Of a stretch of DNA of 64,000 nucleotides, positions 978 through 56,112 are shown in pieces. Origin of the DNA: Minutocellus sp. GHC0000111. Lineage: Eukaryota. Position 1 is the stretch's first letter; each line of letters begins with the position of its first letter. The notes beneath the pieces are model-generated. The model was not told where the DNA came from. It was given only the letters and a program-made list of their open reading frames with translations, and made no database searches. The translations under genes and the position numbers were made by a program. The stretch lies in assembly GCA_977018835.1 (NCBI GenBank), contig OZ361257.1, positions 4,774,001 to 4,838,000 on the forward strand. The letters run 5' to 3'.

Positions 978-989
978 CGTCCCTCCCGC

Positions 990-2270: not shown

Positions 2271-2490
2271 GCTGGTGTTTCAGTCAGCGAAGACAGTCAG
2301 CACGGCGGTGTTGCTGCGAGACGTGTGATCGACAGAAGGTTCGATCCAGAGAAGTGTGATCGATTGGATGGGTCGATCTGGTCAGGACTTCCGGGGAAAA
2401 GATTGGATCGTCGTTCCAATATTGTCGAAAGAAACGGTCGTTTTGGCCGATTGAAGATGTGTCGGTTTTTCTTGCGTGACGAGTGAGAAC

Positions 2491-4288: not shown

Positions 4289-4484
4289 TGCTAAGAGGTC
4301 CTAAAGCTAAGCTAGATAGATATAGCTAGTAGAGGTTAGTAGGACCTACGTAGATGAAAAATGGGCCATCGGAGATGTCGTTGGCCCATGGATCAATTGT
4401 CAGGAGAGGGCACTGAGTCAGTGGTCTGATCACCGTAAGTACTGTACGAATATATACGTACGTACGTATCCCACGGTGTCAACA
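4289..4484 (-). repeat. 3' LTR, copy D
   Basis: Same as the B/C 3' LTR except GAAAAATGGG vs GAAAATTGGG. Confidence 0.94.
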
Positions 4485-4543
4485 CCCCCTCGCAGATCAA
4501 TGACTAGTGCCATTGAATCTACATGTAGAGTCCTAATTGGAAT

Positions 4544-7390: not shown

Positions 7391-7462
7391 TTTTCATCTA
7401 CGTAGGTCCTACTAACCTCTACTAGCTATATCTATCTAGCTTAGCTTTAGGACCTCTTAGCA
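7388..7462 (+). mobile_element. Inverted partial LTR (75 bp, R/U5 end)
   Basis: Reverse complement of 4289-4363, followed by CCCTG (the inverted TSD junction). Confidence 0.9.
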
Positions 7463-8365
7463 CCCTGATCTCTACCAAAGCTTATGTTCCATTCATTGCC
7501 ATGTGAGAGCAGCAAGGAATGCATGTGGTGAGCAGTGTCCTGTGATTGCACTGCAGCCAAAGCACGCATCTTTGTGGGTGGTGTGGGCGTCGCCAGCAGC
7601 GTTGGAAAAATCAGGGCGCTCCTAACTGGAGCAACTAACATCAATAATAGGAGCACCCTGATCTCTACCAAAGCTTATGTTCCATTCATTGCCATGTGAG
7701 AGCAGCAAGAAATGCATGTGGTGAGCAGTGTCCTGTGATTGCACTGCAGCCAAAGCACGCATCTTTGTGGGTGGTGCGGGCGTCGCCAGCAGCGTTGGAA
7801 AAACTAGGGCGCTCCTAACTGGAGCAACTCATGTTTGACCATAGGAGCACCCTGATCTCTACCAAAGCTTATGCTCCATTCATTACAATGTGAGAGCAGC
7901 AAGAAATTCATGTGGTGAGCAGTGTCCTGTGATTGCACTGCAGCCAAAGCACTCATCTATGTGGGTGGCGTGGGCATCGCCAGCAGCAGCGTTGGGACAA
8001 CTAGGGCGCTCCTTACTGGAGCAACTCACATTTGACCATAGCAGCAACCTGATCTCTACCAAAGCTTATGTTCCATTCATTGCCATGTGAGAGCAGCAAG
8101 AAATGCATGTGGTGAGCAGTGTCCTGTGATTGCACTGCAGCCAAAGCACGCATCTTTGTGGGTGGTGTGGGTGTCGCCAGCAGCGTTGGGAAAGCTAGGG
8201 GGCGCTCCTAACTGGAGCAACTCACATTTGACCATAGGAGCACCCTGATCTCTACCAAAGCTTATGTTCCATTCATTGCCATGTGAGAGCAGCAAGGAAT
8301 GCATGTGGTAAGCAGTGTCCTGTGATTGCACTGCAGCCAAAGCACGCATCTTTGTGGGTGGTGTG
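7463..8365 (-). repeat. Inverted Sat-A block (~4.6 monomers)
   Basis: Reverse complement of ~3386-4288 with a few substitutions. Confidence 0.93.
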
Positions 8366-8484
8366 GTTCTCACTCGTCACGCAAGAAAAACCGACACATC
8401 TTCAATCGGCCAAAACGACCGTTTCTTTCGACAATATTGGAACGACGATCCAATCTTTTCCCCGGAAGTCCTGACCAGATCGAC
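8365..8484 (+). mobile_element. Inverted 120-bp fragment of the element 5' UTR
   Basis: Reverse complement of 2372-2491, including the copy A deletion junction. Confidence 0.9.
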
Positions 8485-32400: not shown

Positions 32401-35400
32401 TGCTTTTCCCAACGCTGCTGGCGACGCCCACACCACCCACAAAGATGAGTGCTTTGGCTGCAGTGCAATCACAGGACACTGCTCACCACATGCATTCCTT
32501 GCTGCTCTCACATGGCAATGAATGGAACATAAGCTTTGGTAGAGATCAGGGTGCTGCTATGGTCAAACATGAATTGCTCCAGTTAGGAGCGCCCTAGTTT
32601 TCCCAACGCTGCTGGCGACGCCCACACCACCCACAAAGATGCGTGCTTTGGCTGCAGTGCAATCACTGGACACTGCTCACCACATGCATTCCTTTCTGCT
32701 CTCACATGGCAATGAATGGAACATAAGCTTTGGTAGAGATCAGGGTGCTGCTATGGTCAAATGTGAGTTGCTCCAGTAAGGAGCGCCCTGCTTTTCCCAA
32801 CGCTGCTGGCGACGCCCACACCACCCACAAAGATGCGTGCTTTGGCTGCAGTGCAATCACAGGACACTGCTCACCACATGCATTCCTTGCTGCTCTCACA
32901 TGGCAATGAATGGAACATAAACTTTGGTAGAGATCAGGGTGCTCCTATGGTCAAATGTGAGTTGCTCCAGTTAGGAGCGCCCTGATTTTCCCAACGCTGC
33001 TGGCGACGCCCACACCACCCACAAAGATGCGTGCTTTGGCTGCAGTGCAATCACAGGACACTGCTCACCACATGCATTCCTTGCTGCTCTCACATGGCAA
33101 TGAATGGAACATAAGCTTTGGTAGAGATCAGGGTGCTCCTATTATTGATGTAAGTTGCTCCAGTTAGGAGCGCCCTAGTTTTCCCAACGCTGCTGGCGAC
33201 GCCCACACCACCCACAAAGATGCGTGCTTTGGCTGCAGTGCAATCACAGGACACTGCTCACCACATGCATTCCTTGCTGCTCTCACATGGCAATGAATGG
33301 AACATAAGCTTTGGTAGAGATCAGGGTGCTCCTATTATTGATGTGAGTTGCTCCAGTTAGGAGCGCCCTAGTTTTCCCAACGCTGCTGGCGCCGCCCACA
33401 CCACCCACAAAGATGCATGCCTTGGCTGCAGTGCAATCACAGGACACTGCTCACCACATGCATTCCTTGCTGCTCTCACATGGCAATGAATGGAACATAA
33501 GCTTTGGTAGAGATCAGGGTGCTGCTATGGTCAAATGTGAGTTGCTCCAGTTAGGAGAGCACTGATTTTCCCAACACTGCTGGCTGGCGACTAACCAACA
33601 ACCCACAAAGATGAGTGCTTTGGCTGCAGTGCAATCACAGGACACTGCTCACCACATGCATTCCTTGCTGCTCTCACATGGCAATGAATGGAACATAAGC
33701 TTTGGTAGAGATCAGGGTGCTCCTATGGTCAAATGTGAGTTGCTCCAGTTTGGAGAGCACTGATTTTCCCAACGCTGCTTGCTGGCGACTCCCCAACAAC
33801 CCACAAAGATGAGTGCTTTGGCTGCAGTGCAATCACAGGACACTGCTCACCACATGCATTCCTTGCTGCTCTCACATGGCAATGAATGGAACATAAGCTT
33901 TGGTAGAGATCAGGGTGCTCCTATTATTGATGTGAGTTGCTCCAGTTAGGAGCGCCCTAGTTTTCCCAACGCTGCTGGCGACGCCCACAAAGATGAGTGC
34001 TTTGGCTGCAGTGCAATCACAGGACACTGCTCACCACATGCATTCCTTGCTGCTCTCACATGGCAATGAAGGAACATAAGCTTTGGTAGAGATCAGGGTG
34101 CTCCTGTGGTGACAACTGAGTTGCTCCAGTTAGGAGCGCCCTAGTTTTCCCAATGCTGCTGGTGACGCCCACACCACCCACAAAGATGCATGCTTTGGCT
34201 GCAGTGCAATCACAGGACACTGCTCACCACATGCATTCCTTGCTGCTCTCACATGGCAATGAATGGAACATAAGCTTTGGTAGAGATCAGGGTGCTCCTA
34301 TGGTCAAACATGAGTTGCTCCAGTTAGGAGAGCACTGATTTTCCCAACGCTGCTGGCTGGCGACTCCCCAACCACCCACAAAGATGCATGCTTTGGCTGC
34401 AGTGCAATCACAGGACACTGCTCACCACATGCATTCCTTGCTGCTCTCACATGGCAATGAATGGAACACAAGCTTTGGCAGAGATCAGGGCACTCCTATG
34501 GTCAAATGTGAGTTGCTCCAGATAGTACAGCCCTAGTTTTCCCAACGCTGCTGGCGACACCCACACCACCCACAAAGATGCGTGCTTTGGCTGCAGTGCA
34601 ATCACAGGACACTGCTCACCACATGCATTCCTTGCTGCTCTCACATGGCAATGAATGGAACATAAGCTTTGGTAGAGATCAGGGTGCTGCTATGGTCAAA
34701 TGTGAGTTGCTCCAGTTAGGACAGCCCTAGCTTTCCCAACGCTGCTTTTGACGCCCACACCACCCACAAAGATGCGTGCTTTGGCTGCAGTGCAATCACA
34801 GGACACTGCTCACCACATGCATTCCTTGCTGCTCTCACATGGCAATGAATGGAACATAAGCTTTGGTAGAGATCAGGGTGCTGCTATGGTCAAATATGAG
34901 TTGCTCCAGTTAGGACAGCCCTAACTTTCCCAACGCTGCTGGTGACGCCCACACCACCCACAAAGATGCGTGCTTTGGCTGCAGTGCAATCACAGGACAC
35001 TGCTCAACACATGCATTCCTTGCTGCTCTCACATGGCAATGAATGGAACATAAGCTTTGGTAGAGATCAGGGTGCTCCTATTGTCAAATGTGAGTTGATC
35101 CAGTTAGGACAGCCCTAACTTTCCCAACGCTGCTGGCGACGCCCACACCACCCACAAAGATGCGTGCTTTGGCTGCAGTGCAATCACAGGACACTGCTCA
35201 ACACATGCATTCGTTGCTGCTCTCACATGGCAATGAATGGAACATAAGCTTTGGTAGAGATCAGGGTGCTCCTATTGTCAAATGTGAGTTGATCCAGTTA
35301 GGAGCGACCCCTAGCTTTCCCAACGCTGCTGGCGACACCCACACCAGCCACAAAGATGCGTGCTTTGGCTGCAGTGCAATCACAGGACACTGCTCAACAC

Positions 35401-38400
35401 ATGCATTCCTTGCTGCTCTCACATGGCAATGAATGGAACATAAGCTTTGGTAGAGATCAGGGTGCTCCTATGGTCAAATGTGAGTTGCCCCAGTTAGGAG
35501 CGCCCTAGTTGTCCCAACGCTGCTGCTGGCGATGCCCACGCCACCCACATAGATGAGTGCTTTGGCTGCAGTGCAATCACTGGACACTGCTCACCACATG
35601 CATTTCTTGCGAGGAGCGCCCTGGCTTTCCTAACGCTGCTGGCGACCCCACACCACCCACAAAGATGCGTGCTTTGGCTGCAGTGCAATCACTGGACACT
35701 GCTCACCACATGCATTTCTTGCTGCTCTCACATTGTAATGAATGGAACATAAGCTTTGGTAGAGATCAGGGTGCTCCTATGGTCAAATGTGAGTTGCTCC
35801 AGTTAGGAGCGCCATAGCTTTCCCAACGCTGCTGGCGACGCCCACACCACCCACAAAGATGAGTGCTTTGGCTGCAGTGCAATCACAGGACACTGCTCAC
35901 CACATGCATTCCTTGCTGCTCTCACATGGCAATGAATGGAACATAAGCTTTGGTAGAGATCAGGGTGCTCCTATGGTCAAATGTGAGTTGCTCCAGTTAG
36001 GAGCGCCCCCTAGCTTTCCCAACGCTGCTGGCGACACCCACACCACCCACAAAGATGCGTGCTTTGGCTGCAGTGCAATCACAGGACACTGCTCACCACA
36101 TGCATTCCTTGCTGCTCTCACATGGCAATGAATGGAACATAAGCTTTGGTAGAGATCAGGGTGCTCCTATGGTCAAATGTGAGTTGCTCCAGTTAGGAGC
36201 GCCCCCTAGCTTTCCCAACGCTGCTGGCGACACCCACACCACCCACAAAGATGCGTGCTTTGGCTGCAGTGCAATCACAGGACACTGCTCACCACATGCA
36301 TTTCTTGCTGCTCTCACATGGCAATGAATGGAACATAAGCTTTGGTAGAGATCAGGTTGCTGCTATGGTCAAATGTGAGTTGCTCCAGTAAGGAGCGCCC
36401 TAGTTGTCCCAACGCTGCTGCTGGCGATGCCCACGCCACCCACATAGATGAGTGCTTTGGCTGCAGTGCAATCACAGGACACTGCTCACCACATGAATTT
36501 CTTGCTGCTCTCACATTGTAATGAATGGAGCATAAGCTTTGGTAGAGATCAGGGTGCTCCTATGGTCAAACATGAGTTGCTCCAGTTAGGAGCGCCCTAG
36601 TTTTTCCAACGCTGCTGGCGACGCCCGCACCACCCACAAAGATGCGTGCTTTGGCTGCAGTGCAATCACAGGACACTGCTCACCACATGCATTTCTTGCT
36701 GCTCTCACATGGCAATGAATGGAACATAAGCTTTGGTAGAGATCAGGTTGCTGCTATGGTCAAATGTGAGTTGCTCCAGTAAGGAGCGCCCTAGTTGTCC
36801 CAACGCTGCTGCTGGCGATGCCCACGCCACCCACATAGATGAGTGCTTTTGCTGCAGTGCAATCACAGGACACTGCTCACCACATGCATTCCTTGCTGCT
36901 CTCACATGGCAATGAATGGAACATAAGCTTTGGTAGAGATCAGGGTGCTCCTATTATTGATGTGAGTTGCTCCAGTTAGGAGCGCCCTAGTTTTCCCAAC
37001 GCTGCTGGCGACGCCCACAAAGATGAGTGCTTTGGCTGCAGTGCAATCACAGGACACTGCTCACCACATGCATTCCTTGCTGCTCTCACATGGCAATGAA
37101 GGAACATAAGCTTTGGTAGAGATCAGGGTGCTCCTGTGGTGACAACTGAGTTGCTCCAGTTAGGAGCGCCCTAGTTTTCCCAATGCTGCTGGTGACGCCC
37201 ACACCACCCACAAAGATGCATGCTTTGGCTGCAGTGCAATCACAGGACACTGCTCACCACATGCATTCCTTGCTGCTCTCACATGGCAATGAATGGAACA
37301 TAAGCTTTGGTAGAGATCAGGGTGCTCCTATGGTCAAACATGAGTTGCTCCAGTTAGGAGAGCACTGATTTTCCCAACGCTGCTGGCTGGCGACTCCCCA
37401 ACCACCCACAAAGATGCATGCTTTGGCTGCAGTGCAATCACAGGACACTGCTCACCACATGCATTCCTTGCTGCTCTCACATGGCAATGAATGGAACACA
37501 AGCTTTGGCAGAGATCAGGGCACTCCTATGGTCAAATGTGAGTTGCTCCAGATAGTACAGCCCTAGTTTTCCCAACGCTGCTGGCGACACCCACACCACC
37601 CACAAAGATGCGTGCTTTGGCTGCAGTGCAATCACAGGACACTGCTCACCACATGCATTCCTTGCTGCTCTCACATGGCAATGAATGGAACATAAGCTTT
37701 GGTAGAGATCAGGGTGCTGCTATGGTCAAATGTGAGTTGCTCCAGTTAGGACAGCCCTAGCTTTCCCAACGCTGCTTTTGACGCCCACACCACCCACAAA
37801 GATGCGTGCTTTGGCTGCAGTGCAATCACAGGACACTGCTCACCACATGCATTCCTTGCTGCTCTCACATGGCAATGAATGGAACATAAGCTTTGGTAGA
37901 GATCAGGGTGCTGCTATGGTCAAATATGAGTTGCTCCAGTTAGGACAGCCCTAACTTTCCCAACGCTGCTGGTGACGCCCACACCACCCACAAAGATGCG
38001 TGCTTTGGCTGCAGTGCAATCACAGGACACTGCTCAACACATGCATTCCTTGCTGCTCTCACATGGCAATGAATGGAACATAAGCTTTGGTAGAGATCAG
38101 GGTGCTCCTATTGTCAAATGTGAGTTGATCCAGTTAGGACAGCCCTAACTTTCCCAACGCTGCTGGCGACGCCCACACCACCCACAAAGATGCGTGCTTT
38201 GGCTGCAGTGCAATCACAGGACACTGCTCAACACATGCATTCGTTGCTGCTCTCACATGGCAATGAATGGAACATAAGCTTTGGTAGAGATCAGGGTGCT
38301 CCTATTGTCAAATGTGAGTTGATCCAGTTAGGAGCGACCCCTAGCTTTCCCAACGCTGCTGGCGACACCCACACCAGCCACAAAGATGCGTGCTTTGGCT

Positions 38401-39971
38401 GCAGTGCAATCACAGGACACTGCTCAACACATGCATTCCTTGCTGCTCTCACATGGCAATGAATGGAACATAAGCTTTGGTAGAGATCAGGGTGCTCCTA
38501 TGGTCAAATGTGAGTTGCCCCAGTTAGGAGCGCCCTAGTTGTCCCAACGCTGCTGCTGGCGATGCCCACGCCACCCACATAGATGAGTGCTTTGGCTGCA
38601 GTGCAATCACTGGACACTGCTCACCACATGCATTTCTTGCGAGGAGCGCCCTGGCTTTCCTAACGCTGCTGGCGACCCCACACCACCCACAAAGATGCGT
38701 GCTTTGGCTGCAGTGCAATCACTGGACACTGCTCACCACATGCATTTCTTGCTGCTCTCACATTGTAATGAATGGAACATAAGCTTTGGTAGAGATCAGG
38801 GTGCTCCTATGGTCAAATGTGAGTTGCTCCAGTTAGGAGCGCCATAGCTTTCCCAACGCTGCTGGCGACGCCCACACCACCCACAAAGATGAGTGCTTTG
38901 GCTGCAGTGCAATCACAGGACACTGCTCACCACATGCATTCCTTGCTGCTCTCACATGGCAATGAATGGAACATAAGCTTTGGTAGAGATCAGGGTGCTC
39001 CTATGGTCAAATGTGAGTTGCTCCAGTTAGGAGCGCCCCCTAGCTTTCCCAACGCTGCTGGCGACACCCACACCACCCACAAAGATGCGTGCTTTGGCTG
39101 CAGTGCAATCACAGGACACTGCTCACCACATGCATTCCTTGCTGCTCTCACATGGCAATGAATGGAACATAAGCTTTGGTAGAGATCAGGGTGCTCCTAT
39201 GGTCAAATGTGAGTTGCTCCAGTTAGGAGCGCCCCCTAGCTTTCCCAACGCTGCTGGCGACACCCACACCACCCACAAAGATGCGTGCTTTGGCTGCAGT
39301 GCAATCACAGGACACTGCTCACCACATGCATTTCTTGCTGCTCTCACATGGCAATGAATGGAACATAAGCTTTGGTAGAGATCAGGTTGCTGCTATGGTC
39401 AAATGTGAGTTGCTCCAGTAAGGAGCGCCCTAGTTGTCCCAACGCTGCTGCTGGCGATGCCCACGCCACCCACATAGATGAGTGCTTTGGCTGCAGTGCA
39501 ATCACAGGACACTGCTCACCACATGAATTTCTTGCTGCTCTCACATTGTAATGAATGGAGCATAAGCTTTGGTAGAGATCAGGGTGCTCCTATGGTCAAA
39601 CATGAGTTGCTCCAGTTAGGAGCGCCCTAGTTTTTCCAACGCTGCTGGCGACGCCCGCACCACCCACAAAGATGCGTGCTTTGGCTGCAGTGCAATCACA
39701 GGACACTGCTCACCACATGCATTTCTTGCTGCTCTCACATGGCAATGAATGGAACATAAGCTTTGGTAGAGATCAGGGTGCTCCTATTATTGATGTTAGT
39801 TGCTCCAGTTAGGAGCGCCCTGATTTTCCCAACGCTGCTGGCGACGCCCACACCACCCACAAAGATGCGTGCTTTGGCTGCAGTGCAATCACAGGACACT
39901 GCTCACCACATGCATTCCTTGCTGCTCTCACATGGCAATGAATGGAACATAAGCTTTGGTAGAGATCAGGG
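8483..39971 (+). repeat. Main Sat-A array, ~160 monomers of ~194 bp (variants up to 198 bp, some deleted units) with higher-order duplications
   Basis: Period 194 (e.g. GATGCGTGCT at 11161 and 11355); nearly every unit carries CTGCAG, ATGCAT and AAGCTT. Confidence 0.97.
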
Positions 39972-40167
39972 TGCTAAGAGGTCCTAAAGCTAAGCTAGAT
40001 AGATATAGCTAGTAGAGGTTAGTAGGACCTACGTAGATGAAAATTGGGCCATCGGAGATGTCGTTGGCCCATGGATCAATTGTCAGGAGAGGGCACTGAG
40101 TCAGTGGTCTGATCACCGTAAGTACTGTACGAATATATACGTACGTACGTATCCCACGGTGTCAACA
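39972..40167 (-). repeat. 3' LTR, copy B (196 bp)
   Basis: TGCTAAGAGG...GTCAACA on +; abuts the PPT. Confidence 0.95.
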
Positions 40168-40178
40168 CCCCCTCGCAG
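40168..40178 (-). other. Polypurine tract (sense CTGCGAGGGGG); also 4485-4495 and 50147-50157
   Basis: G-rich run immediately 5' of the 3' LTR (TGTTGAC) on the element sense strand. Confidence 0.8.
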
Positions 40179-40226
40179 ATCAATGACTAGTGCCATTGAA
40201 TCTACATGTAGAGTCCTAATTGGAAT

Positions 40227-43200
40227 CTACATGTAAGTAGACTGGTCGCATGTCGTCATGGTAGCGGGCGGGATTGTGCTTTTTAAAATAATTTGCGCTC
40301 CTTTCCGCCAGCACACCTGGAATTGTCGTTGCTCCATGCGATCTTGGACCCAGTAGAATCTCATGTCCATAGCCTTAGACCGTCTTTGCTTGACGGTTTT
40401 ATTGGCGATTCCAGATGCTGTAGAGTTGTCAACGACGACAGCAGTAGGGGGTTGCGGGTGACCCATTTCTTCTAGTGCTGCCCGGATTGGTGCTGCATCT
40501 TTCATGTTGAAAAATAGTCCTCCCAATTCGGCTTCAGCGGCTGAGGACATTGCATGCTTGATGATGTTGGCATTGACGAGGATGGCTCCATTCATTGGTG
40601 GCATGGGATCACTTGAGTCAGGCTGGCGGTGCGGGTCCTTAGGTCGGGAGCTTAGGTAGAAGTGCCCTCTGAGCTTGCTTCTTGATTTCGGGGCTGATAA
40701 GTGGGAGGCGTCGCTATGTACATGTGGGATCATGTCTGACTTGACGTGTCGAATGACTGCGTCGGGATGGGTTGCAAGGTAATCTAGAAGCTTCTTGGCA
40801 TCTTGTCGAGTGCGCTCGGTAGCTTTGGATTGTTCCGCTGAGATGCTGTTGAGCGCCGGTAAAATTGTTGAATCAATTGCTCGACCATAGCACAAGGAGC
40901 TGCCCACCACCTGTTGAATTTTGTTGATGCCTTTGGCGTCGAGTGGTGGTGAGTCGTCTTCCGGTTCTGGCAGCTGGGGTCCCGGGCCATACGTCGGATG
41001 ATTCCATCGACATGGCGCATGCTCGGGCCGTGAGGGGCGGTCGTGTTGGAACTTGTGGCGCATCTCCTTGACGTAGTTAGGCATAGATAGATCCACCCAT
41101 TTGGCCTCGTAGTTCCACTCGAGTTGAACACCACAATAAAGTCGGCCTTCCCAATCGGTAGTGATCTTATACTTGGAGTTGAGGGCCTGAATGAGATGGT
41201 CTGCATGCTCTTTCCCGACATGCTTTGCTCCAAAATCGTCAACGGTTAGGCAAAAGGTAATTGGGCGGGTTTTGTGCCTCCAAAGGCCGGCAGTTCGCTT
41301 GCATGGGAAATAGCCATGGGGTTTGAGATGCTTGACAAGTTGATCGTAGGCTAGGCGCCCTGCCTGGGGTAATCCATGCATTCCGCCATCGATTCTGACC
41401 AATACTCGACCATTCTTTACTTTGTCGTGGAGGTCGTAGGCTTCCATGACTTTGTCGGGGATGAGAGCTACTGGCGCCCACATCCATTCTGGCTCTGGCA
41501 TGGTGCTATTGAGATAGAAGTCACTGATATCAATTCCCATGAAACGAGCGTTGTCTGTAGAGATGACGCTGTTGAAAAGTAACTTTGCAGTCAACATTTC
41601 AGCGGTCGGGGTCGAGACTGTACCAGGGTAATGAATTTTGTCGCCTCCTGCAGTCCATCGAACTCGATTGGGATTTGGTTTATGGGAGCGATAGTCGGCG
41701 ACAATGCGGAGGTATGTGGCTTTTTTCCCCCGAGGCAGTTCGGACCAGTGGACGAAAGCCATTGTATTGGAGGGAATGCTAGCACTGTTTCCAACTCGGC
41801 CGTCCGTTAGCCGTCCAATTTCATCGATGTTTGCTTGAATGAATTGGTCCCTCATGTTCGTTTTGAGGAGGTCGCGGTATTCAAGCATTGCACCAGTGTC
41901 GGGATGGACGACGGCGTTAGCAAAGTGTTGGAGGTTTGGTAAAGGCGAGAAAGCTGCCATGTTGGCCACGTGGTGGGTGCTACGACGAGATGATGGCCGT
42001 GGGGGAGGGTTCCGATGTGGAATGTACCCTCGCTGACGGTATGATCGTCGTCGAGGTGGTTTGGCGGTCGATGGTTTGGACTTGCTTGTCGATTTTGCTG
42101 GAGCTGGTAATGTTGGAGTGGCATCGATCGTTGGAGACTTGCGTTTACGTTGCCGACGGGAGGTGGGGGCATTGGAACTTTGATTGGATGTTACGACGGT
42201 TGCATCGTCGCCGTTGGGCTCGTCTACTGCAACCAAAGGATTGTAGCAGTTGGAAGAAACTGACGAGCGAGGTGGCGCGTTGGATCGACGTGATCGACGG
42301 CTTTTAGTGGTGGCTGCATCATATGTGGAGGATTTTGCCACCCTCGGAGGTTGCTGGGGCTGAGGTAACGGAGCGTTGGGGTTGGAGACAAGGTGACGGC
42401 CTGCTTCAGTCTCGTTCATCTCTTCTACGTCGTCGTCCTCGTATTTGATTTTGTAGTGCTTATACTTCTTGTCAAATGCAACGACTCTACCCTTGTAATT
42501 GCGATCTCCAAACACTTTGGCGACGATGGTACCGTGGCCGAATCGTTGGGAGTCGTCATCGTTCTCCAGCACCCTCGGAGCTGCGGTTGTCTGCATCGTC
42601 TCATCAGAGGCGGAGGTGGCAGATTCTGCTGGGGTCACTCTGTTGAAAATCTCGGAGAGCTTTTCTAAAGCTTGACGATGCTCGTCTCGAAGGGGAGCAA
42701 GGGGTGCCGCTGGATGTGGATTCTGTAGAGCGTGCAGGAGTTCATGAGCTGCGACTATTGCTGCATCGGCCGACGACGTTTTGGGTACCGGAATCATTTT
42801 GGGGAGCCAGACGAGTGTGTTACCAGTGCGTTCCGCCCGAGTTTCCTCAATCCAAACCTTGTAACACCGGTAGTGTTCCATGGCTGGACCGACATAGTAC
42901 CCATCAACGCCATGCGGGGACCAAGAGCCGCGTGCCGAGGGCATCTCGTGAAAGATGACCTTGCATCCGAGGGGGCCGAGAGGCGTGCGATTGAAATCAA
43001 AGCCGCCATTGAGTTGCTCGTACGCTGATAGTCGAGGGTTGACTCGGGATGCTCTCAGGAAATTGAGGGTCATTACCGCCTGCTCCAGCAATTTATCCCA
43101 CAAGATGAGGGGAAAGTCGGGATCGGTACCACAGAGAATCGCAATGAAATGATTCTTAAAGGTTCGAATGGCTCGTTCGGCCGCATTTCGGCGGTGGGAG

Positions 43201-44354
43201 TGCGTTGGGGTCAATTGAAAATCTACATCCTTTTCTTCCATGAACTCCTTCAGCTCTCGACTCACTTCATTATCCAATCGTTGCAATTTTGGGCGAAATC
43301 CTCGCTTGGAGAGGTATTCGAAAATAGTTTGGTACGCTCGGCGCATTTCCGTTCCCGATCGGCTTTTCATTGGTTCGGCCAAGATGCTGTTGGAGTCATA
43401 GTCATAGACGACCATTATGTGCTGGTGGCCAGAAATAGACGATACCAAGAAACGGCCGGGCTGATCTGAGAAGATCTGGCCCGTTATGTCATGACAATCA
43501 GCAAAGACATAGTTGGTGCGCTGTTGGTGTTGTGCCGGGTGGAGATCCTGCTCGGTTTCGTCCACCCCAGGGAGAGATTTTGGCGTAGCCATCGACCGTT
43601 TGGGCTTGGTCGACCTGATGTTCTTGCGCTGCTGGTCTAAGTGACCTTTAATCATCGGCATCGACTGTGGCATGTGCTTACGTACAAGCTTTGATGTGAG
43701 GCCTGGCCAAGATCTATAAAATCCCGCATCGATTGCTTTGCACCAGGTAGATAGCTGAGGACTGCCAGCGCACCAATGTAAAAAGGCTACACGTTCCGGA
43801 ACCGTCTCCTGGGCAATTGCGGCGTTGGCAGCATGTTGGATGACGTTGGGGCCGGGGAGCGGCGACATGGTGGGCGAGCAATTAAGATCTACCATCCACA
43901 ATTTCGTTGAGGGGTCTCGTTTACCTTGCAAAATGACGGTGTTGTCCTTGGCGATGACTACCGAATCCTTATCGAAAGTGGCAACACATCCATCGTCACA
44001 CAGCTGCCCAATCGATAGGAGCGATGATGCCATATTGTTGAAAATATAGGCCTTGCTAGCCGATGGGGAAACCCCAGGGAGGCGAAGCGTGGCCTCGTGG
44101 GTGTTCGTCATTGTGCTGTTATCCGGAAGGGTGACGCTGATAGGAATTGCTGTCTGTTGGACGCTGAAAATAGGGCCATCGTACGATAGGTATTGGGGCT
44201 TCTGGACAAAATGTCCCGTCGTTCCAGTATCTGCTGCGAGGACGATTGGCTCTTGAGTTGGAGGTTTGCTTTTTGACGTAAGAAAAGCTAACGAAGGCGG
44301 GGAGGAGGTGGATTCAGATATGCTATCCTCTGTTTTATACTGATTAATATCCAC
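40227..44354 (-). CDS. pol: Pol polyprotein, copy B (PR-IN-Tudor-like-RT-RNase H); probably inactivated
   Basis: Protease ADTGTTGHF; integrase SDQPG / RLDNE / NAAERAIRTFKNHF; RT IDISDFYL, GLPQAG, VDDFG; RNase H HSDAS, AEAE, VDN. Frameshift near the C-terminus (~40291-40297). Confidence 0.93.
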   Translation of the reverse strand: MDINQYKTEDSISESTSSPPSLAFLTSKSKPPTQEPIVLAADTGTTGHFVQKPQYLSYDGPIFSVQQTAIPISVTLPDNSTMTNTHEATLRLPGVSPSASKAYIFNNMASSLLSIGQLCDDGCVATFDKDSVVIAKDNTVILQGKRDPSTKLWMVDLNCSPTMSPLPGPNVIQHAANAAIAQETVPERVAFLHWCAGSPQLSTWCKAIDAGFYRSWPGLTSKLVRKHMPQSMPMIKGHLDQQRKNIRSTKPKRSMATPKSLPGVDETEQDLHPAQHQQRTNYVFADCHDITGQIFSDQPGRFLVSSISGHQHIMVVYDYDSNSILAEPMKSRSGTEMRRAYQTIFEYLSKRGFRPKLQRLDNEVSRELKEFMEEKDVDFQLTPTHSHRRNAAERAIRTFKNHFIAILCGTDPDFPLILWDKLLEQAVMTLNFLRASRVNPRLSAYEQLNGGFDFNRTPLGPLGCKVIFHEMPSARGSWSPHGVDGYYVGPAMEHYRCYKVWIEETRAERTGNTLVWLPKMIPVPKTSSADAAIVAAHELLHALQNPHPAAPLAPLRDEHRQALEKLSEIFNRVTPAESATSASDETMQTTAAPRVLENDDDSQRFGHGTIVAKVFGDRNYKGRVVAFDKKYKHYKIKYEDDDVEEMNETEAGRHLVSNPNAPLPQPQQPPRVAKSSTYDAATTKSRRSRRSNAPPRSSVSSNCYNPLVAVDEPNGDDATVVTSNQSSNAPTSRRQRKRKSPTIDATPTLPAPAKSTSKSKPSTAKPPRRRSYRQRGYIPHRNPPPRPSSRRSTHHVANMAAFSPLPNLQHFANAVVHPDTGAMLEYRDLLKTNMRDQFIQANIDEIGRLTDGRVGNSASIPSNTMAFVHWSELPRGKKATYLRIVADYRSHKPNPNRVRWTAGGDKIHYPGTVSTPTAEMLTAKLLFNSVISTDNARFMGIDISDFYLNSTMPEPEWMWAPVALIPDKVMEAYDLHDKVKNGRVLVRIDGGMHGLPQAGRLAYDQLVKHLKPHGYFPCKRTAGLWRHKTRPITFCLTVDDFGAKHVGKEHADHLIQALNSKYKITTDWEGRLYCGVQLEWNYEAKWVDLSMPNYVKEMRHKFQHDRPSRPEHAPCRWNHPTYGPGPQLPEPEDDSPPLDAKGINKIQQVVGSSLCYGRAIDSTILPALNSISAEQSKATERTRQDAKKLLDYLATHPDAVIRHVKSDMIPHVHSDASHLSAPKSRSKLRGHFYLSSRPKDPHRQPDSSDPMPPMNGAILVNANIIKHAMSSAAEAELGGLFFNMKDAAPIRAALEEMGHPQPPTAVVVDNSTASGIANKTVKQRRSKAMDMRFYWVQDRMEQRQFQVCWRKGAQIILKSTIPPATMTTCDQSTYM

Positions 44355-44366
44355 CGTCCCTCCCGC

Positions 44367-45647
44367 TCAGTTACGACGCGAGCTACCACCGCAAGGATTG
44401 TACTTGGTGGCGTTATCAACGTGGTTGGGCCCTTTGCAAGTGCATTCAAAGCTGGGGTGGTTGGACGAATAGCCGCACGTGTGGCAATAATGGCCTCTGG
44501 GGAGGATCGACTGCAGTTCCCGCTTCTCCTGGTGGTTGAGGTTAGGACCTTGGCCTGGGAAGTGGCCGGCGCCGTTCTGCTGGCCACCGCCGCGGTAGCC
44601 TCCACTGCCACCAGTGTGGTTGCGTCCCTCACGCAGAACGCGGTTCTCGGCCTTGAGTGAAGCTATTTCTTGGCGAAGTTTGGCAATGGTGTCATCCTTC
44701 TCGTTGCTCTTTTTGGCGAGGTTCGCCATCATGGCTTGGTTGGTCTTGAGGGCTTCGGTGGTATCAGCCAAAAGGAGATCGGCTCGAGAAAGAAATGGAT
44801 CGTCCGAGGCCGATGAGGCCAAATTCGCGCCATGATATCCTGCCGCTTCGGTGGTGGTATTGGCCATCTTCTTATCACACCAATCGCGGAAGTCCGACTG
44901 CATGTTGGCCCACGTGCGTTCGGCCTCCGGTCTGTCGTCCCAGTCCTCGCATGCCTTCTTTGCCAATGAGAACCTGCGCACGGAGCGGTAGAACTTGGAG
45001 ACCTTTTGCTTGTTGGTGAAGGGTTCGCCGGCCGTTTCAAACGCCTTGAAGACTTTGTTGAATATGGCGATGTGGGTGTCGATGGGTCCCCCGTCGTGCT
45101 GCTTCTCGAGCTGCTTCTCTAATTCCTCCTTCTGAGTCTCGTTGAATTTCAAGTAGCGATCGGCAATGCTGTCGATGATTTGGCGGATGGTGACTGGCTG
45201 GAAACCGAGCATGTCATCTTCGAGATGATTGATGTAGACGGCGTCGATCGAGTCGAGGAGGAGATTCTTGATCGCCGTGTTGACTTGCTCGTGCAAGTTG
45301 TAGTGGCCCTTTTCGATGTGATGTCCCCGGATTGCACGATCGCGTTGGTCTAGATTGGCCACGGCGGGAATGGTGGGGCTGGGGCCAGGATTTGCCGGAG
45401 GCACATGTGGTCGGCCGTTACTTTTGGTGGTGTGTTCGGCATCGCTGACGACGAGGCCCAAATGGCCGAGGTCATGGTCATTGTGCCCTGCTGGAATGCT
45501 GGCCGCCGCTTGTTGAAGTTCCTTGAGAGCTTTGGCAACACGCTCGCGTTGGGGAGGTTGTCCTGGGTCATTCATACGTGTGATTAACTTGGTGGGGAGA
45601 ATCGGCGCTGCGCCGAGAGGTTGGCCAAAAGCTGCGTTGGGATTCAC
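44367..45647 (-). CDS. gag: Gag, copy B (426 aa; ORF opens at GTG)
   Basis: N-terminal GHLGLV motif, coiled-coil segment, Gly-rich linker and C-terminal zinc knuckle YCHTCGYSSNHPSFEC...H; lies between the 5' LTR and pol. Confidence 0.88.
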   Translation of the reverse strand: MNPNAAFGQPLGAAPILPTKLITRMNDPGQPPQRERVAKALKELQQAAASIPAGHNDHDLGHLGLVVSDAEHTTKSNGRPHVPPANPGPSPTIPAVANLDQRDRAIRGHHIEKGHYNLHEQVNTAIKNLLLDSIDAVYINHLEDDMLGFQPVTIRQIIDSIADRYLKFNETQKEELEKQLEKQHDGGPIDTHIAIFNKVFKAFETAGEPFTNKQKVSKFYRSVRRFSLAKKACEDWDDRPEAERTWANMQSDFRDWCDKKMANTTTEAAGYHGANLASSASDDPFLSRADLLLADTTEALKTNQAMMANLAKKSNEKDDTIAKLRQEIASLKAENRVLREGRNHTGGSGGYRGGGQQNGAGHFPGQGPNLNHQEKRELQSILPRGHYCHTCGYSSNHPSFECTCKGPNHVDNATKYNPCGGSSRRN

Positions 45648-45925: not shown

Positions 45926-45937
45926 ATCACGTAGGTC
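45926..45937 (-). other. Primer-binding-site position, sense GACCTACGTGAT, complementary to an LTR segment; also 55905-55916
   Basis: Directly follows the 5' LTR terminal CA; lacks TGG; inverted repeat with 45992-46004. Confidence 0.6.
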
Positions 45938-46133
45938 TGCTAAGAGGTCCTAAAGCTAAGCTAGATAGATATAGCTAGTAGAGGTTAATAGGACCTACGT
46001 AGATGAAAAATGGGCCATCGGAGATGTCGTTGGGCCATGGATCAAGGGTCAGGAGAGGGCACTGAGTCAGTGGTCTGATCACCGTACGTACCGTACGTAT
46101 GTATACGTACGTAAGTATCCCACGGTATCAACA
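45938..46133 (-). repeat. 5' LTR, copy B (196 bp)
   Basis: Direct repeat of 39972-40167 with 11 substitutions (counted by eye). Confidence 0.95.
46060..46114. promoter_or_regulatory. Putative bZIP-type sites in U3 (CACTGAGTCAGTG and clustered TACGTA)
   Basis: AP-1/GCN4-type TGAGTCA core in a 13-bp dyad, plus repeated ACGT cores in the U3 part of the LTR; function inferred only. Confidence 0.35.
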
Positions 46134-49950: not shown

Positions 49951-50146
49951 TGCTAAGAGGTCCTAAAGCTAAGCTAGATAGATATAGCTAGTAGAGGTTA
50001 GTAGGACCTACGTAGATGAAAATTGGGCCATCGGAGATGTCGTTGGCCCATGGATCAATTGTCAGGAGAGGGCACTGAGTCAGTGGTCTGATCACCGTAA
50101 GTACTGTACGAATATATACGTACGTACGTATCCCACGGTGTCAACA
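49951..50146 (-). repeat. 3' LTR, copy C
   Basis: Same as the copy B 3' LTR. Confidence 0.95.
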
Positions 50147-50205
50147 CCCCCTCGCAGATCAATGACTAGTGCCATTGAATCTACATGTAGAGTCCTAATT
50201 GGAAT

Positions 50206-53200
50206 CTACATGTAAGTAGACTGGTCGCATGTCGTCATGGTAGCGGGCGGGATTGTGCTTTTTAAAATAATTTGCGCTCCTTTCCGCCAGCACACCTGGA
50301 ATTGTCGTTGCTCCATGCGATCTTGGACCCAGTAGAATCTCATGTCCATAGCCTTAGACCGTCTTTGCTTGACGGTTTTATTGGCGATTCCAGATGCTGT
50401 AGAGTTGTCAACGACGACAGCAGTAGGGGGTTGCGGGTGACCCATTTCTTCTAGTGCTGCCCGGATTGGTGCTGCATCTTTCATGTTGAAAAATAGTCCT
50501 CCCAATTCGGCTTCAGCGGCTGAGGACATTGCATGCTTGATGATGTTGGCATTGACGAGGATGGCTCCATTCATTGGTGGCATGGGATCACTTGAGTCAG
50601 GCTGGCGGTGCGGGTCCTTAGGTCGGGAGCTTAGGTAGAAGTGCCCTCTGAGCTTGCTTCTTGATTTCGGGGCTGATAAGTGGGAGGCGTCGCTATGTAC
50701 ATGTGGGATCATGTCTGACTTGACGTGTCGAATGACTGCGTCGGGATGGGTTGCAAGGTAATCTAGAAGCTTCTTGGCATCTTGTCGAGTGCGCTCGGTA
50801 GCTTTGGATTGTTCCGCTGAGATGCTGTTGAGCGCCGGTAAAATTGTTGAATCAATTGCTCGACCATAGCACAAGGAGCTGCCCACCACCTGTTGAATTT
50901 TGTTGATGCCTTTGGCGTCGAGTGGTGGTGAGTCGTCTTCCGGTTCTGGCAGCTGGGGTCCCGGGCCATACGTCGGATGATTCCATCGACATGGCGCATG
51001 CTCGGGCCGTGAGGGGCGGTCGTGTTGGAACTTGTGGCGCATCTCCTTGACGTAGTTAGGCATAGATAGATCCACCCATTTGGCCTCGTAGTTCCACTCG
51101 AGTTGAACACCACAATAAAGTCGGCCTTCCCAATCGGTAGTGATCTTATACTTGGAGTTGAGGGCCTGAATGAGATGGTCTGCATGCTCTTTCCCGACAT
51201 GCTTTGCTCCAAAATCGTCAACGGTTAGGCAAAAGGTAATTGGGCGGGTTTTGTGCCTCCAAAGGCCGGCAGTTCGCTTGCATGGGAAATAGCCATGGGG
51301 TTTGAGATGCTTGACAAGTTGATCGTAGGCTAGGCGCCCTGCCTGGGGTAATCCATGCATTCCGCCATCGATTCTGACCAATACTCGACCATTCTTTACT
51401 TTGTCGTGGAGGTCGTAGGCTTCCATGACTTTGTCGGGGATGAGAGCTACTGGCGCCCACATCCATTCTGGCTCTGGCATGGTGCTATTGAGATAGAAGT
51501 CACTGATATCAATTCCCATGAAACGAGCGTTGTCTGTAGAGATGACGCTGTTGAAAAGTAACTTTGCAGTCAACATTTCAGCGGTCGGGGTCGAGACTGT
51601 ACCAGGGTAATGAATTTTGTCGCCTCCTGCAGTCCATCGAACTCGATTGGGATTTGGTTTATGGGAGCGATAGTCGGCGACAATGCGGAGGTATGTGGCT
51701 TTTTTCCCCCGAGGCAGTTCGGACCAGTGGACGAAAGCCATTGTATTGGAGGGAATGCTAGCACTGTTTCCAACTCGGCCGTCCGTTAGCCGTCCAATTT
51801 CATCGATGTTTGCTTGAATGAATTGGTCCCTCATGTTCGTTTTGAGGAGGTCGCGGTATTCAAGCATTGCACCAGTGTCGGGATGGACGACGGCGTTAGC
51901 AAAGTGTTGGAGGTTTGGTAAAGGCGAGAAAGCTGCCATGTTGGCCACGTGGTGGGTGCTACGACGAGATGATGGCCGTGGGGGAGGGTTCCGATGTGGA
52001 ATGTACCCTCGCTGACGGTATGATCGTCGTCGAGGTGGTTTGGCGGTCGATGGTTTGGACTTGCTTGTCGATTTTGCTGGAGCTGGTAATGTTGGAGTGG
52101 CATCGATCGTTGGAGACTTGCGTTTACGTTGCCGACGGGAGGTGGGGGCATTGGAACTTTGATTGGATGTTACGACGGTTGCATCGTCGCCGTTGGGCTC
52201 GTCTACTGCAACCAAAGGATTGTAGCAGTTGGAAGAAACTGACGAGCGAGGTGGCGCGTTGGATCGACGTGATCGACGGCTTTTAGTGGTGGCTGCATCA
52301 TATGTGGAGGATTTTGCCACCCTCGGAGGTTGCTGGGGCTGAGGTAACGGAGCGTTGGGGTTGGAGACAAGGTGACGGCCTGCTTCAGTCTCGTTCATCT
52401 CTTCTACGTCGTCGTCCTCGTATTTGATTTTGTAGTGCTTATACTTCTTGTCAAATGCAACGACTCTACCCTTGTAATTGCGATCTCCAAACACTTTGGC
52501 GACGATGGTACCGTGGCCGAATCGTTGGGAGTCGTCATCGTTCTCCAGCACCCTCGGAGCTGCGGTTGTCTGCATCGTCTCATCAGAGGCGGAGGTGGCA
52601 GATTCTGCTGGGGTCACTCTGTTGAAAATCTCGGAGAGCTTTTCTAAAGCTTGACGATGCTCGTCTCGAAGGGGAGCAAGGGGTGCCGCTGGATGTGGAT
52701 TCTGTAGAGCGTGCAGGAGTTCATGAGCTGCGACTATTGCTGCATCGGCCGACGACGTTTTGGGTACCGGAATCATTTTGGGGAGCCAGACGAGTGTGTT
52801 ACCAGTGCGTTCCGCCCGAGTTTCCTCAATCCAAACCTTGTAACACCGGTAGTGTTCCATGGCTGGACCGACATAGTACCCATCAACGCCATGCGGGGAC
52901 CAAGAGCCGCGTGCCGAGGGCATCTCGTGAAAGATGACCTTGCATCCGAGGGGGCCGAGAGGCGTGCGATTGAAATCAAAGCCGCCATTGAGTTGCTCGT
53001 ACGCTGATAGTCGAGGGTTGACTCGGGATGCTCTCAGGAAATTGAGGGTCATTACCGCCTGCTCCAGCAATTTATCCCACAAGATGAGGGGAAAGTCGGG
53101 ATCGGTACCACAGAGAATCGCAATGAAATGATTCTTAAAGGTTCGAATGGCTCGTTCGGCCGCATTTCGGCGGTGGGAGTGCGTTGGGGTCAATTGAAAA

Positions 53201-54333
53201 TCTACATCCTTTTCTTCCATGAACTCCTTCAGCTCTCGACTCACTTCATTATCCAATCGTTGCAATTTTGGGCGAAATCCTCGCTTGGAGAGGTATTCGA
53301 AAATAGTTTGGTACGCTCGGCGCATTTCCGTTCCCGATCGGCTTTTCATTGGTTCGGCCAAGATGCTGTTGGAGTCATAGTCATAGACGACCATTATGTG
53401 CTGGTGGCCAGAAATAGACGATACCAAGAAACGGCCGGGCTGATCTGAGAAGATCTGGCCCGTTATGTCATGACAATCAGCAAAGACATAGTTGGTGCGC
53501 TGTTGGTGTTGTGCCGGGTGGAGATCCTGCTCGGTTTCGTCCACCCCAGGGAGAGATTTTGGCGTAGCCATCGACCGTTTGGGCTTGGTCGACCTGATGT
53601 TCTTGCGCTGCTGGTCTAAGTGACCTTTAATCATCGGCATCGACTGTGGCATGTGCTTACGTACAAGCTTTGATGTGAGGCCTGGCCAAGATCTATAAAA
53701 TCCCGCATCGATTGCTTTGCACCAGGTAGATAGCTGAGGACTGCCAGCGCACCAATGTAAAAAGGCTACACGTTCCGGAACCGTCTCCTGGGCAATTGCG
53801 GCGTTGGCAGCATGTTGGATGACGTTGGGGCCGGGGAGCGGCGACATGGTGGGCGAGCAATTAAGATCTACCATCCACAATTTCGTTGAGGGGTCTCGTT
53901 TACCTTGCAAAATGACGGTGTTGTCCTTGGCGATGACTACCGAATCCTTATCGAAAGTGGCAACACATCCATCGTCACACAGCTGCCCAATCGATAGGAG
54001 CGATGATGCCATATTGTTGAAAATATAGGCCTTGCTAGCCGATGGGGAAACCCCAGGGAGGCGAAGCGTGGCCTCGTGGGTGTTCGTCATTGTGCTGTTA
54101 TCCGGAAGGGTGACGCTGATAGGAATTGCTGTCTGTTGGACGCTGAAAATAGGGCCATCGTACGATAGGTATTGGGGCTTCTGGACAAAATGTCCCGTCG
54201 TTCCAGTATCTGCTGCGAGGACGATTGGCTCTTGAGTTGGAGGTTTGCTTTTTGACGTAAGAAAAGCTAACGAAGGCGGGGAGGAGGTGGATTCAGATAT
54301 GCTATCCTCTGTTTTATACTGATTAATATCCAC
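50206..54333 (-). CDS. pol: Pol polyprotein, copy C; probably inactivated
   Basis: Translation matches copy B Pol, including the C-terminal frameshift. Confidence 0.93.
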   Translation of the reverse strand: MDINQYKTEDSISESTSSPPSLAFLTSKSKPPTQEPIVLAADTGTTGHFVQKPQYLSYDGPIFSVQQTAIPISVTLPDNSTMTNTHEATLRLPGVSPSASKAYIFNNMASSLLSIGQLCDDGCVATFDKDSVVIAKDNTVILQGKRDPSTKLWMVDLNCSPTMSPLPGPNVIQHAANAAIAQETVPERVAFLHWCAGSPQLSTWCKAIDAGFYRSWPGLTSKLVRKHMPQSMPMIKGHLDQQRKNIRSTKPKRSMATPKSLPGVDETEQDLHPAQHQQRTNYVFADCHDITGQIFSDQPGRFLVSSISGHQHIMVVYDYDSNSILAEPMKSRSGTEMRRAYQTIFEYLSKRGFRPKLQRLDNEVSRELKEFMEEKDVDFQLTPTHSHRRNAAERAIRTFKNHFIAILCGTDPDFPLILWDKLLEQAVMTLNFLRASRVNPRLSAYEQLNGGFDFNRTPLGPLGCKVIFHEMPSARGSWSPHGVDGYYVGPAMEHYRCYKVWIEETRAERTGNTLVWLPKMIPVPKTSSADAAIVAAHELLHALQNPHPAAPLAPLRDEHRQALEKLSEIFNRVTPAESATSASDETMQTTAAPRVLENDDDSQRFGHGTIVAKVFGDRNYKGRVVAFDKKYKHYKIKYEDDDVEEMNETEAGRHLVSNPNAPLPQPQQPPRVAKSSTYDAATTKSRRSRRSNAPPRSSVSSNCYNPLVAVDEPNGDDATVVTSNQSSNAPTSRRQRKRKSPTIDATPTLPAPAKSTSKSKPSTAKPPRRRSYRQRGYIPHRNPPPRPSSRRSTHHVANMAAFSPLPNLQHFANAVVHPDTGAMLEYRDLLKTNMRDQFIQANIDEIGRLTDGRVGNSASIPSNTMAFVHWSELPRGKKATYLRIVADYRSHKPNPNRVRWTAGGDKIHYPGTVSTPTAEMLTAKLLFNSVISTDNARFMGIDISDFYLNSTMPEPEWMWAPVALIPDKVMEAYDLHDKVKNGRVLVRIDGGMHGLPQAGRLAYDQLVKHLKPHGYFPCKRTAGLWRHKTRPITFCLTVDDFGAKHVGKEHADHLIQALNSKYKITTDWEGRLYCGVQLEWNYEAKWVDLSMPNYVKEMRHKFQHDRPSRPEHAPCRWNHPTYGPGPQLPEPEDDSPPLDAKGINKIQQVVGSSLCYGRAIDSTILPALNSISAEQSKATERTRQDAKKLLDYLATHPDAVIRHVKSDMIPHVHSDASHLSAPKSRSKLRGHFYLSSRPKDPHRQPDSSDPMPPMNGAILVNANIIKHAMSSAAEAELGGLFFNMKDAAPIRAALEEMGHPQPPTAVVVDNSTASGIANKTVKQRRSKAMDMRFYWVQDRMEQRQFQVCWRKGAQIILKSTIPPATMTTCDQSTYM

Positions 54334-54345
54334 CGTCCCTCCCGC

Positions 54346-55626
54346 TCAGTTACGACGCGAGCTACCACCGCAAGGATTGTACTTGGTGGCGTTATCAACG
54401 TGGTTGGGCCCTTTGCAAGTGCATTCAAAGCTGGGGTGGTTGGACGAATAGCCGCACGTGTGGCAATAATGGCCTCTGGGGAGGATCGACTGCAGTTCCC
54501 GCTTCTCCTGGTGGTTGAGGTTAGGACCTTGGCCTGGGAAGTGGCCGGCGCCGTTCTGCTGGCCACCGCCGCGGTAGCCTCCACTGCCACCAGTGTGGTT
54601 GCGTCCCTCACGCAGAACGCGGTTCTCGGCCTTGAGTGAAGCTATTTCTTGGCGAAGTTTGGCAATGGTGTCATCCTTCTCGTTGCTCTTTTTGGCGAGG
54701 TTCGCCATCATGGCTTGGTTGGTCTTGAGGGCTTCGGTGGTATCAGCCAAAAGGAGATCGGCTCGAGAAAGAAATGGATCGTCCGAGGCCGATGAGGCCA
54801 AATTCGCGCCATGATATCCTGCCGCTTCGGTGGTGGTATTGGCCATCTTCTTATCACACCAATCGCGGAAGTCCGACTGCATGTTGGCCCACGTGCGTTC
54901 GGCCTCCGGTCTGTCGTCCCAGTCCTCGCATGCCTTCTTTGCCAATGAGAACCTGCGCACGGAGCGGTAGAACTTGGAGACCTTTTGCTTGTTGGTGAAG
55001 GGTTCGCCGGCCGTTTCAAACGCCTTGAAGACTTTGTTGAATATGGCGATGTGGGTGTCGATGGGTCCCCCGTCGTGCTGCTTCTCGAGCTGCTTCTCTA
55101 ATTCCTCCTTCTGAGTCTCGTTGAATTTCAAGTAGCGATCGGCAATGCTGTCGATGATTTGGCGGATGGTGACTGGCTGGAAACCGAGCATGTCATCTTC
55201 GAGATGATTGATGTAGACGGCGTCGATCGAGTCGAGGAGGAGATTCTTGATCGCCGTGTTGACTTGCTCGTGCAAGTTGTAGTGGCCCTTTTCGATGTGA
55301 TGTCCCCGGATTGCACGATCGCGTTGGTCTAGATTGGCCACGGCGGGAATGGTGGGGCTGGGGCCAGGATTTGCCGGAGGCACATGTGGTCGGCCGTTAC
55401 TTTTGGTGGTGTGTTCGGCATCGCTGACGACGAGGCCCAAATGGCCGAGGTCATGGTCATTGTGCCCTGCTGGAATGCTGGCCGCCGCTTGTTGAAGTTC
55501 CTTGAGAGCTTTGGCAACACGCTCGCGTTGGGGAGGTTGTCCTGGGTCATTCATACGTGTGATTAACTTGGTGGGGAGAATCGGCGCTGCGCCGAGAGGT
55601 TGGCCAAAAGCTGCGTTGGGATTCAC
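54346..55626 (-). CDS. gag: Gag, copy C
   Basis: Translation matches copy B Gag. Confidence 0.88.
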   Translation of the reverse strand: MNPNAAFGQPLGAAPILPTKLITRMNDPGQPPQRERVAKALKELQQAAASIPAGHNDHDLGHLGLVVSDAEHTTKSNGRPHVPPANPGPSPTIPAVANLDQRDRAIRGHHIEKGHYNLHEQVNTAIKNLLLDSIDAVYINHLEDDMLGFQPVTIRQIIDSIADRYLKFNETQKEELEKQLEKQHDGGPIDTHIAIFNKVFKAFETAGEPFTNKQKVSKFYRSVRRFSLAKKACEDWDDRPEAERTWANMQSDFRDWCDKKMANTTTEAAGYHGANLASSASDDPFLSRADLLLADTTEALKTNQAMMANLAKKSNEKDDTIAKLRQEIASLKAENRVLREGRNHTGGSGGYRGGGQQNGAGHFPGQGPNLNHQEKRELQSILPRGHYCHTCGYSSNHPSFECTCKGPNHVDNATKYNPCGGSSRRN

Positions 55627-55916
55627 GCTGGTGTTTCAGTCAGCGAAGACAGTCAGCACGGCGGTGTTGCTGCGAGACGTGTGATCGACAGAAGGTTCGA
55701 TCCAGAGAAGTGTGATCGATTGGATGGGTCGATCTGGTCAGGACTTCCGGGGAAAAGATTGGATCGTCGTTCCAATATTGTCGAAAGAAACGGTCGTTTT
55801 GGCCGATTGAAGATGTGTCGGTTTTTCTTGCGTGACGAGTGAGAACCCAAGACAAACCGGTGAGGTGCGAACCGAAATGGGGCGAGCACAGGTGGAAAAG
55901 ATGTATCACGTAGGTC

Positions 55917-56112
55917 TGCTAAGAGGTCCTAAAGCTAAGCTAGATAGATATAGCTAGTAGAGGTTAATAGGACCTACGTAGATGAAAAATGGGCCATCGG
56001 AGATGTCGTTGGGCCATGGATCAACGGTCAGGAGAGGGCACTGAGTCAGTGGTCTGATCACCGTACGTACCGTACGTATGTATACGTACGTAAGTATCCC
56101 ACGGTATCAACA
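55917..56112 (-). repeat. 5' LTR, copy C
   Basis: Same as the copy B 5' LTR except CAACGG vs CAAGGG. Confidence 0.95.

Follow-up and report, generated by a model that had tools for sequence, protein, structure and literature searches.

The Ty1/copia element described here has a long terminal repeat (LTR) that pairs with the element's own primer-binding site (PBS), and its reverse transcription is likely to begin from the 5' end of its own RNA and not from a tRNA. The first-pass annotation of the window (the whole stretch of 64,000 nucleotides analysed) had proposed such tRNA-independent, Tf1-like self-priming for a copia element, a reading that is now supported by the covariation of the two pairing partners across relatives. 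Self-priming itself is proven in Tf1 and already predicted for the TAR copia elements of plants.

The element is inserted on the minus strand of a 194-bp satellite that fills most of the window. Copy 1, complete in its parts although decayed, extends from 46133 to 39972 and carries 196-bp LTRs, the 5' LTR (TGTTG...TAGCA) at 45938..46133 and the 3' LTR at 39972..40167, all on the minus strand; 185 of 196 bases match between them. The 5-bp target duplication CCCTG flanks the copy on both sides and separates the 3' LTR from the satellite. Besides the 3' LTR match and the target duplication, the limits of the 5' LTR are marked by loose contig ends in public runs, which fall at 46133 in four of four runs and at 45938 in two of four among the rows shown. 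The public data were contigs in all 22 runs listed, and runs X18 and X20 contributed two and one small pieces only, too little to bear on habitat; sponge and marine metagenomes are among the runs containing DNA of the window. A polypurine tract (40168..40178, minus strand) abuts the 3' LTR, and similar tracts occur in the relatives. The features of copia membership, two TG...CA LTRs, a target-site duplication and a polypurine tract, are thus present.

The gag ORF (44367..45575, minus strand) encodes 402 aa and is separated by an in-frame TGA from pol (40227..44366, minus strand). The order within pol is protease, integrase, reverse transcriptase (RT) and RNase H, with the integrase ahead of the RT as is typical of copia elements. 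Most close homologues carry PF07727, and the Pfam match to RVT_2 at pol aa 911-1107 (E 2.5e-5) lies below Pfam's cut-off. Pol contains the acidic motifs of the polymerase and of RNase H. Close to its C-terminus, where RNase H ends, pol is frameshifted, and residues that are otherwise conserved have been altered; for these reasons the copies in the window are probably dead. A Tudor domain (PF21743, E 7e-11) follows the integrase core, ahead of the RT, at pol aa 612-654 (about 42405-42533); among the 120 homologues listed, it was found in the three closest only. The domain may target insertion to particular chromatin, and the element itself sits in satellite DNA. Pol is open in frame after the gag stop in 31 of 34 loci (TGA 27, TAG 5, TAA 2; 44367-44369 in the window), and the stop is usually trailed by a G-rich run within about 5-10 bases, a pattern which suggests conserved stop-codon readthrough between the two genes. 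Among labelled Atlas clusters, gag is nearest to two eukaryotic ones in which Bacillariophyta is the commonest phylum, a label known for one or two members of each, and the host is probably a diatom.

The satellite array that holds the element occupies 8471..39971, and more arrays lie at 46134-49950 and 56113-59867. Between 8790 and 39971 the satellite shows a deficit of CpG (0.33) and of TpA (0.42) and an excess of CpA/TpG (1.77). Satellite DNA into which retrotransposons are targeted may be a sign of a centromere-like region. The 194-bp satellite gives way abruptly to a second, unrelated tandem array, which has a 191-bp unit and a strong GC skew of about 0.48 (59918-63997). A signature of TpA-to-CpA/TpG hypermutation was observed in pol (40227-44366) and in 44300-46135. 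The TpA type accounts for 20 of the 50 window-specific amino-acid changes in pol, compared with 3.6% of the possible non-synonymous changes and 12% of transitions, and many variants in the public runs belong to it. The LTR stays rich in TpA (observed/expected 1.68 vs 0.38-0.60 in gag and pol). The same signature is described in Bigelowiella natans (bioRxiv 10.64898/2026.01.13.699255).

A second copy of the whole element lies on the minus strand at 49951..56112 (5' LTR 56112-55917, paired segment 55983-55971, PBS 55916-55905). The structure that the annotation had also reported at 55905-55983 is indeed present, but it was rejected as independent support: copy 2 is a segmental duplicate that differs from copy 1 at one of 6162 bases, and the block from about 36841 to 46725 is duplicated with a shift of 9979 bp. 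Rearranged pieces of the same element occupy 1..8484 (minus strand), namely a 5'-truncated piece (2491-1), pol with a 3' LTR (7391-4289), an inverted R-U5 (7388-7462) and an inverted leader (8365-8484). There is no PBS among these pieces.

The 12 bases that follow the 5' LTR (45937-45926, GACCTACGTGAT) contain no TGG, as had been noted before, and constitute a PBS (45926..45937, minus strand) complementary to the element's own LTR. LTR bases 46004-45992 (minus strand) pair with it through 9 bp, a one-base bulge and 3 bp, an arrangement that both the sequence and the predicted fold confirmed. The duplex begins directly after the LTR end, itself fixed by the 3' LTR and the target duplication. 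The paired segment, the predicted self-primer with its 3' end at 45992, is identical in all five full LTR copies. Folding gave a z of -2.69, with two of 200 shuffles equally stable; the helix is part of the minimum-energy fold, and the pair probabilities of its 9-bp portion are 0.96-1.0. Self-primed elements of the Tf1 type have a U5-IR-like stem-loop beside the duplex; here the fold adds three base pairs past a bulged CA. The window element falls short of 10 uninterrupted pairs. A complement of the first nine PBS bases, anchored at the LTR end, appeared in 3 of 20000 shuffled LTRs, and without the anchor a 9-bp stem formed somewhere in 450 nt in 5 of 30 shuffles. In run X1, one variant fell in the paired segment (46000, TpA type, creating a G-U pair), no PBS variant of at least 1% was listed, and none of the variants was a compensatory change in the paired segment or the PBS. 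An Rfam search of 45600-46200 gave no match, and an ARAGORN scan of the 64-kb window detected no tRNA gene. Taken from the window alone the pairing is suggestive and constitutes modest evidence; the relatives decide.

Relatives were sampled at 94 loci. Genome bins supplied 14 of these, and the others are the best 80 of 572 metagenome loci; identity over the best long stretch of pol is 37-62%. Although the retrotransposon is eukaryotic, its relatives L001-L013 sit in contigs of bacterial genome bins, a placement probably due to binning contamination. A conserved purine tract marks the LTR start. Of 86 junctions, 51, the window included, continue into gag and 14 into other DNA for at least 700 nt; the remaining 21, whose short length prevented classification, were left out of the blind scan. 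Five loci of the last class (L005, L026, L061, L074 and L085) have 12-14-bp stems after CA/TA. In the blind scan, 43 of the 51 LTR-gag junctions had their best duplex immediately behind CA/TA, compared with two of the 14 LTR-flank junctions that served as controls, one of which (L050) may carry a decayed PBS, and with a background of 17%. For the window element, L062 and L075, the three elements in which two LTRs define the boundary, pairing begins with the first base past the LTR. The final table held 50 loci, with 40 anchors from the scan and 10 placed by eye after the blind scan had missed them; L032, in which a 3' LTR is followed by non-gag DNA, was dropped from the 51. Three of the 43 blind matches sat at a site other than the final anchor. 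At least 10 perfect pairs were present in 35 of the 50 loci, while in seven the perfect run from the LTR end is 7 bp or shorter; one of the seven, L086, is weak throughout.

Covariation was assessed in 46 families, with L083, L078, L073 and L055 removed as near-duplicates. These families are diverse: for those pairs that gave a hit, the median identity of gag is 32%. Across the first 10 PBS positions, pairing with the family's own LTR averaged 9.57, whereas pairing across families averaged 4.54, and nine or more pairs were formed in 42 of 46 own combinations but in only 39 of 2070 crossed ones. The 46 families have 42 distinct PBS 10-mers, and all four pair types occur at PBS positions 3, 4, 7 and 8. 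Hence the pairing, rather than the letters, is conserved across a diverse lineage, and the LTR/PBS covariation that the first-pass annotation had named as a check in related elements proved to be strong.

A motif with the consensus CTCATAA was read as a putative initiator; in 47 of the 50 loci its A precedes the primer end by 15-17 nt. The window element is one of the three exceptions, and its motif candidates are 46004, at 13 nt, and 46011, at 20 nt. With a matrix built from 48 relatives, 46011 obtained the best score in the LTR (6.8) and 46004 was not among the top five; the score of 6.8 is below the training median of 10.8 and belongs to a site at an atypical distance. L034 and L040, the nearest loci in the RT-RNase H tree, have motif candidates 18 and 19 nt before the primer end, of which that of L040 scores poorly and lies outside its top five sites, and the PBS of L034 lies off the contig. 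L040 carries the duplex at the same place as the window element. Transcription had been expected to start at ~46004-46000 and to yield a primer of ~13 nt. The matrix scores and the candidates of the two nearest relatives make 46011, within the initiator-like motif at 46005..46014 (minus strand), the more likely start, and with the start placed there the primer would probably measure about 20 nt, its 7 unpaired 5' bases following the predicted +1. In most families the primer would be 15-17 nt long, against about 18-20 nt in the subclade of the window element, with a few 5' bases left unpaired.

Position 46019 was also considered as an RNA end, as RNA contigs of two studies stop there, but it was rejected: contigs of DNA runs stop at the same base, and the stop was therefore read as a graph branch. 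In the rearranged part of the window (2372-8484), an inverted copy comprising R-U5, satellite and leader is joined to pol via a 4-base microhomology over the predicted start. The inverted piece at 7388 meets pol at LTR positions 122-125, an interval that spans 46011 (position 123) and not 46004 (position 130). This junction is a weak, after-the-fact hint at a start at 46011, and it may equally reflect a template switch at the DNA level.

The following course of priming is proposed. Transcription would start at the initiator-like CA, here probably 46011, and the 5' end of the RNA would fold back to the PBS, closing an R-U5 loop of 54 nt. A 3' OH would arise through a cut after 45992, and the reverse transcriptase would extend the freed primer into U5. 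During plus-strand synthesis the primer would later be copied, and the PBS would therefore be kept a strict Watson-Crick complement of the LTR. Given self-priming, the odds lean somewhat towards the element's own RNase H as the enzyme that makes the cut; this step, proposed by analogy with Tf1, is the weakest of the scheme.

The closest competitor replaces the cut by a separate short RNA from the element's 5' end, abortive or host-trimmed and derived from either LTR, which would act as primer in trans without cleavage by RNase H. It predicts the same complementarity, the same absence of G-U pairs and the same fixed distance to the initiator, and the paired segment is indeed the same in every LTR copy. 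Moreover, it is compatible with a loop that is not a conserved structure, and a conserved R-U5 loop structure, looked for in the 46 families, was not found (median z -0.24; 4 of 46 below -2). Such a primer would fit the sequence evidence almost as well as the cut of a folded RNA. Against it, the PBS-LTR helix forms in cis in the predicted minimum-energy fold of 42 of the 46 families, and in Tf1, the only case put to the test, it is RNase H that makes the cut (PMC7175516). We therefore regard a separate primer RNA as unlikely and retain the folded RNA as the preferred reading.

It is more improbable still that the duplex serves RNA structure or regulation, in packaging, dimerisation or translation, while priming takes another route. 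In PBS positions 1-8 of the 46 families, 360 of 368 cells were Watson-Crick pairs, eight were mismatches and none was a G-U pair; positions 1-10 contained two G-U pairs in 460 cells, and positions 6-10 two in 230. Other predicted helices of the same RNAs contained 44 G-U pairs among 392. At positions 1-5 the G-U count is biased downwards by the scan, whose seed was five perfect pairs and whose scoring ranked G-U below Watson-Crick. Under the usual scheme of reverse transcription, a PBS regenerated from the primer would not tolerate G-U pairs. The near-absence of such pairs, unlike in an ordinary RNA helix, would therefore fit a PBS renewed in this way. The helix also ends exactly at the LTR boundary in three of three independently bounded elements. 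Another function of this kind has been suggested for the hairpin of the fungal GalEa copia elements, which have no PBS but two inverse complementary segments near the LTR end that form a conserved palindromic hairpin of unknown role (PMC5445492). Both GalEa arms, however, follow the LTR, keep their letters and have no complement in the LTR, as described there, whereas here one arm lies inside the LTR just past the initiator-like motif and the letters vary freely.

It is very improbable that a host tRNA, or half of one, primes here in the manner of Osser, Bryco and Bianca and that the LTR match is a secondary feature. Copia elements with half-tRNA primers, which do not require a TGG, are known (PMC6317226), and a G at PBS position 1 in 43 of 46 families as well as biased positions 5 and 9-11 could be taken as traces of a tRNA partner. 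Yet each of the 42 distinct PBS 10-mers is matched by its own LTR, whereas half-tRNA lineages share one tRNA type, and with 42 different sites no single tRNA or tRNA half can match all of them. A TGG occurs within the first seven PBS bases in just three of the 50 loci, where it is part of the self-paired stem. Chance pairing in this element, with only nine perfect pairs and the unanchored stems of the shuffles in its favour, is practically negligible and was ruled out by comparison with the relatives, given the rarity of the anchored match in shuffled LTRs, the pairing with different letters across the lineage and the duplex at the same place in L040.

For the lineage as a whole, it is about as likely as not that a large aquatic, probably diatom, group of copia elements self-primes throughout and gained this ability independently of Tf1 and TAR. 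It would then have a geometry of its own, in which a capped primer of 15-20 nt starts at a conserved initiator, with its first bases left unpaired, and serves as template for the PBS so that both drift together; no journal paper would so far describe it. Experiments have shown self-priming in Tf1-type gypsy elements only, and its prediction concerns a single lineage of plant copia elements. If true, a further, diverse lineage within copia would mean that escape from the host tRNA arose repeatedly, and it would test the cutting of RNA duplexes as a general ability of retrotransposon RNase H. A PBS that drifts freely while pairing stays near-perfect amounts to a natural compensatory-mutation experiment and to a sequence signature of primer-templated PBS renewal. 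LTR annotation that demands a tRNA PBS will miss such elements, and silencing by PBS-directed tRNA fragments would presumably not apply to them.

Repbase entries of 2003 reportedly called some copia families of Thalassiosira pseudonana self-primed. Our literature search, with subscription journals and Repbase outside its coverage, retrieved no paper on self-priming in diatom copia elements. The main text of PMC2806351 on the diatom copia elements CoDi mentions neither tRNA nor priming, a term search of the available text of PMC8147415 likewise returned no mention of either, and in the accessible parts of PMC3601003 self-priming appears only as a hypothetical ancestral state. CoDi elements (CoDiI/CoDiII) have the copia order, and at most one stop separates their gag from pol (PMC2806351). 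They have been divided into clades A-D, of which clade A has a putative chromodomain after the integrase (PMC2774666). The present element resembles them in its copia order, its gag-pol stop arrangement and its Bacillariophyta-labelled gag neighbours, a likeness drawn from descriptions and not from a tree; its extra domain, however, scores as Tudor (PF21743) and not as the putative chromodomain of clade A (PMC2774666).

The element appears to work like Tf1 but stands outside the Tf1/sushi group. In Tf1 of S. pombe the RNA's first 11 bases pair with the PBS and RNase H cleaves between bases 11 and 12 (PMC7175516), and the same self-priming has been proposed for Tj1 of S. japonicus (PMC4600332). 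In Tf1/Tf2 and Tj1, Ty3/gypsy elements of the Tf1/sushi group, the PBS likewise complements a segment of the element's own 5' LTR (PMC7175516, PMC4600332). The window element differs from them in its gene order, with the integrase before the RT and not after RNase H as in Ty3/gypsy, and in its predicted primer, which has 15-20 nt with unpaired 5' bases where Tf1 pairs its first 11. Cleavage by RNase H, demonstrated in Tf1, is predicted here by analogy. The annotation had described copia elements as normally primed by tRNAs; self-priming within copia nevertheless has a predicted precedent in the plant TAR elements Houba and Osr-1, in which a complement of at least 10 bp starts 0-5 bp after the LTR (PMC6317226). 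TAR is a lineage of land plants that was compared with the present one by description only. The available text on TAR reports neither covariation nor a start-site analysis (PMC6317226).
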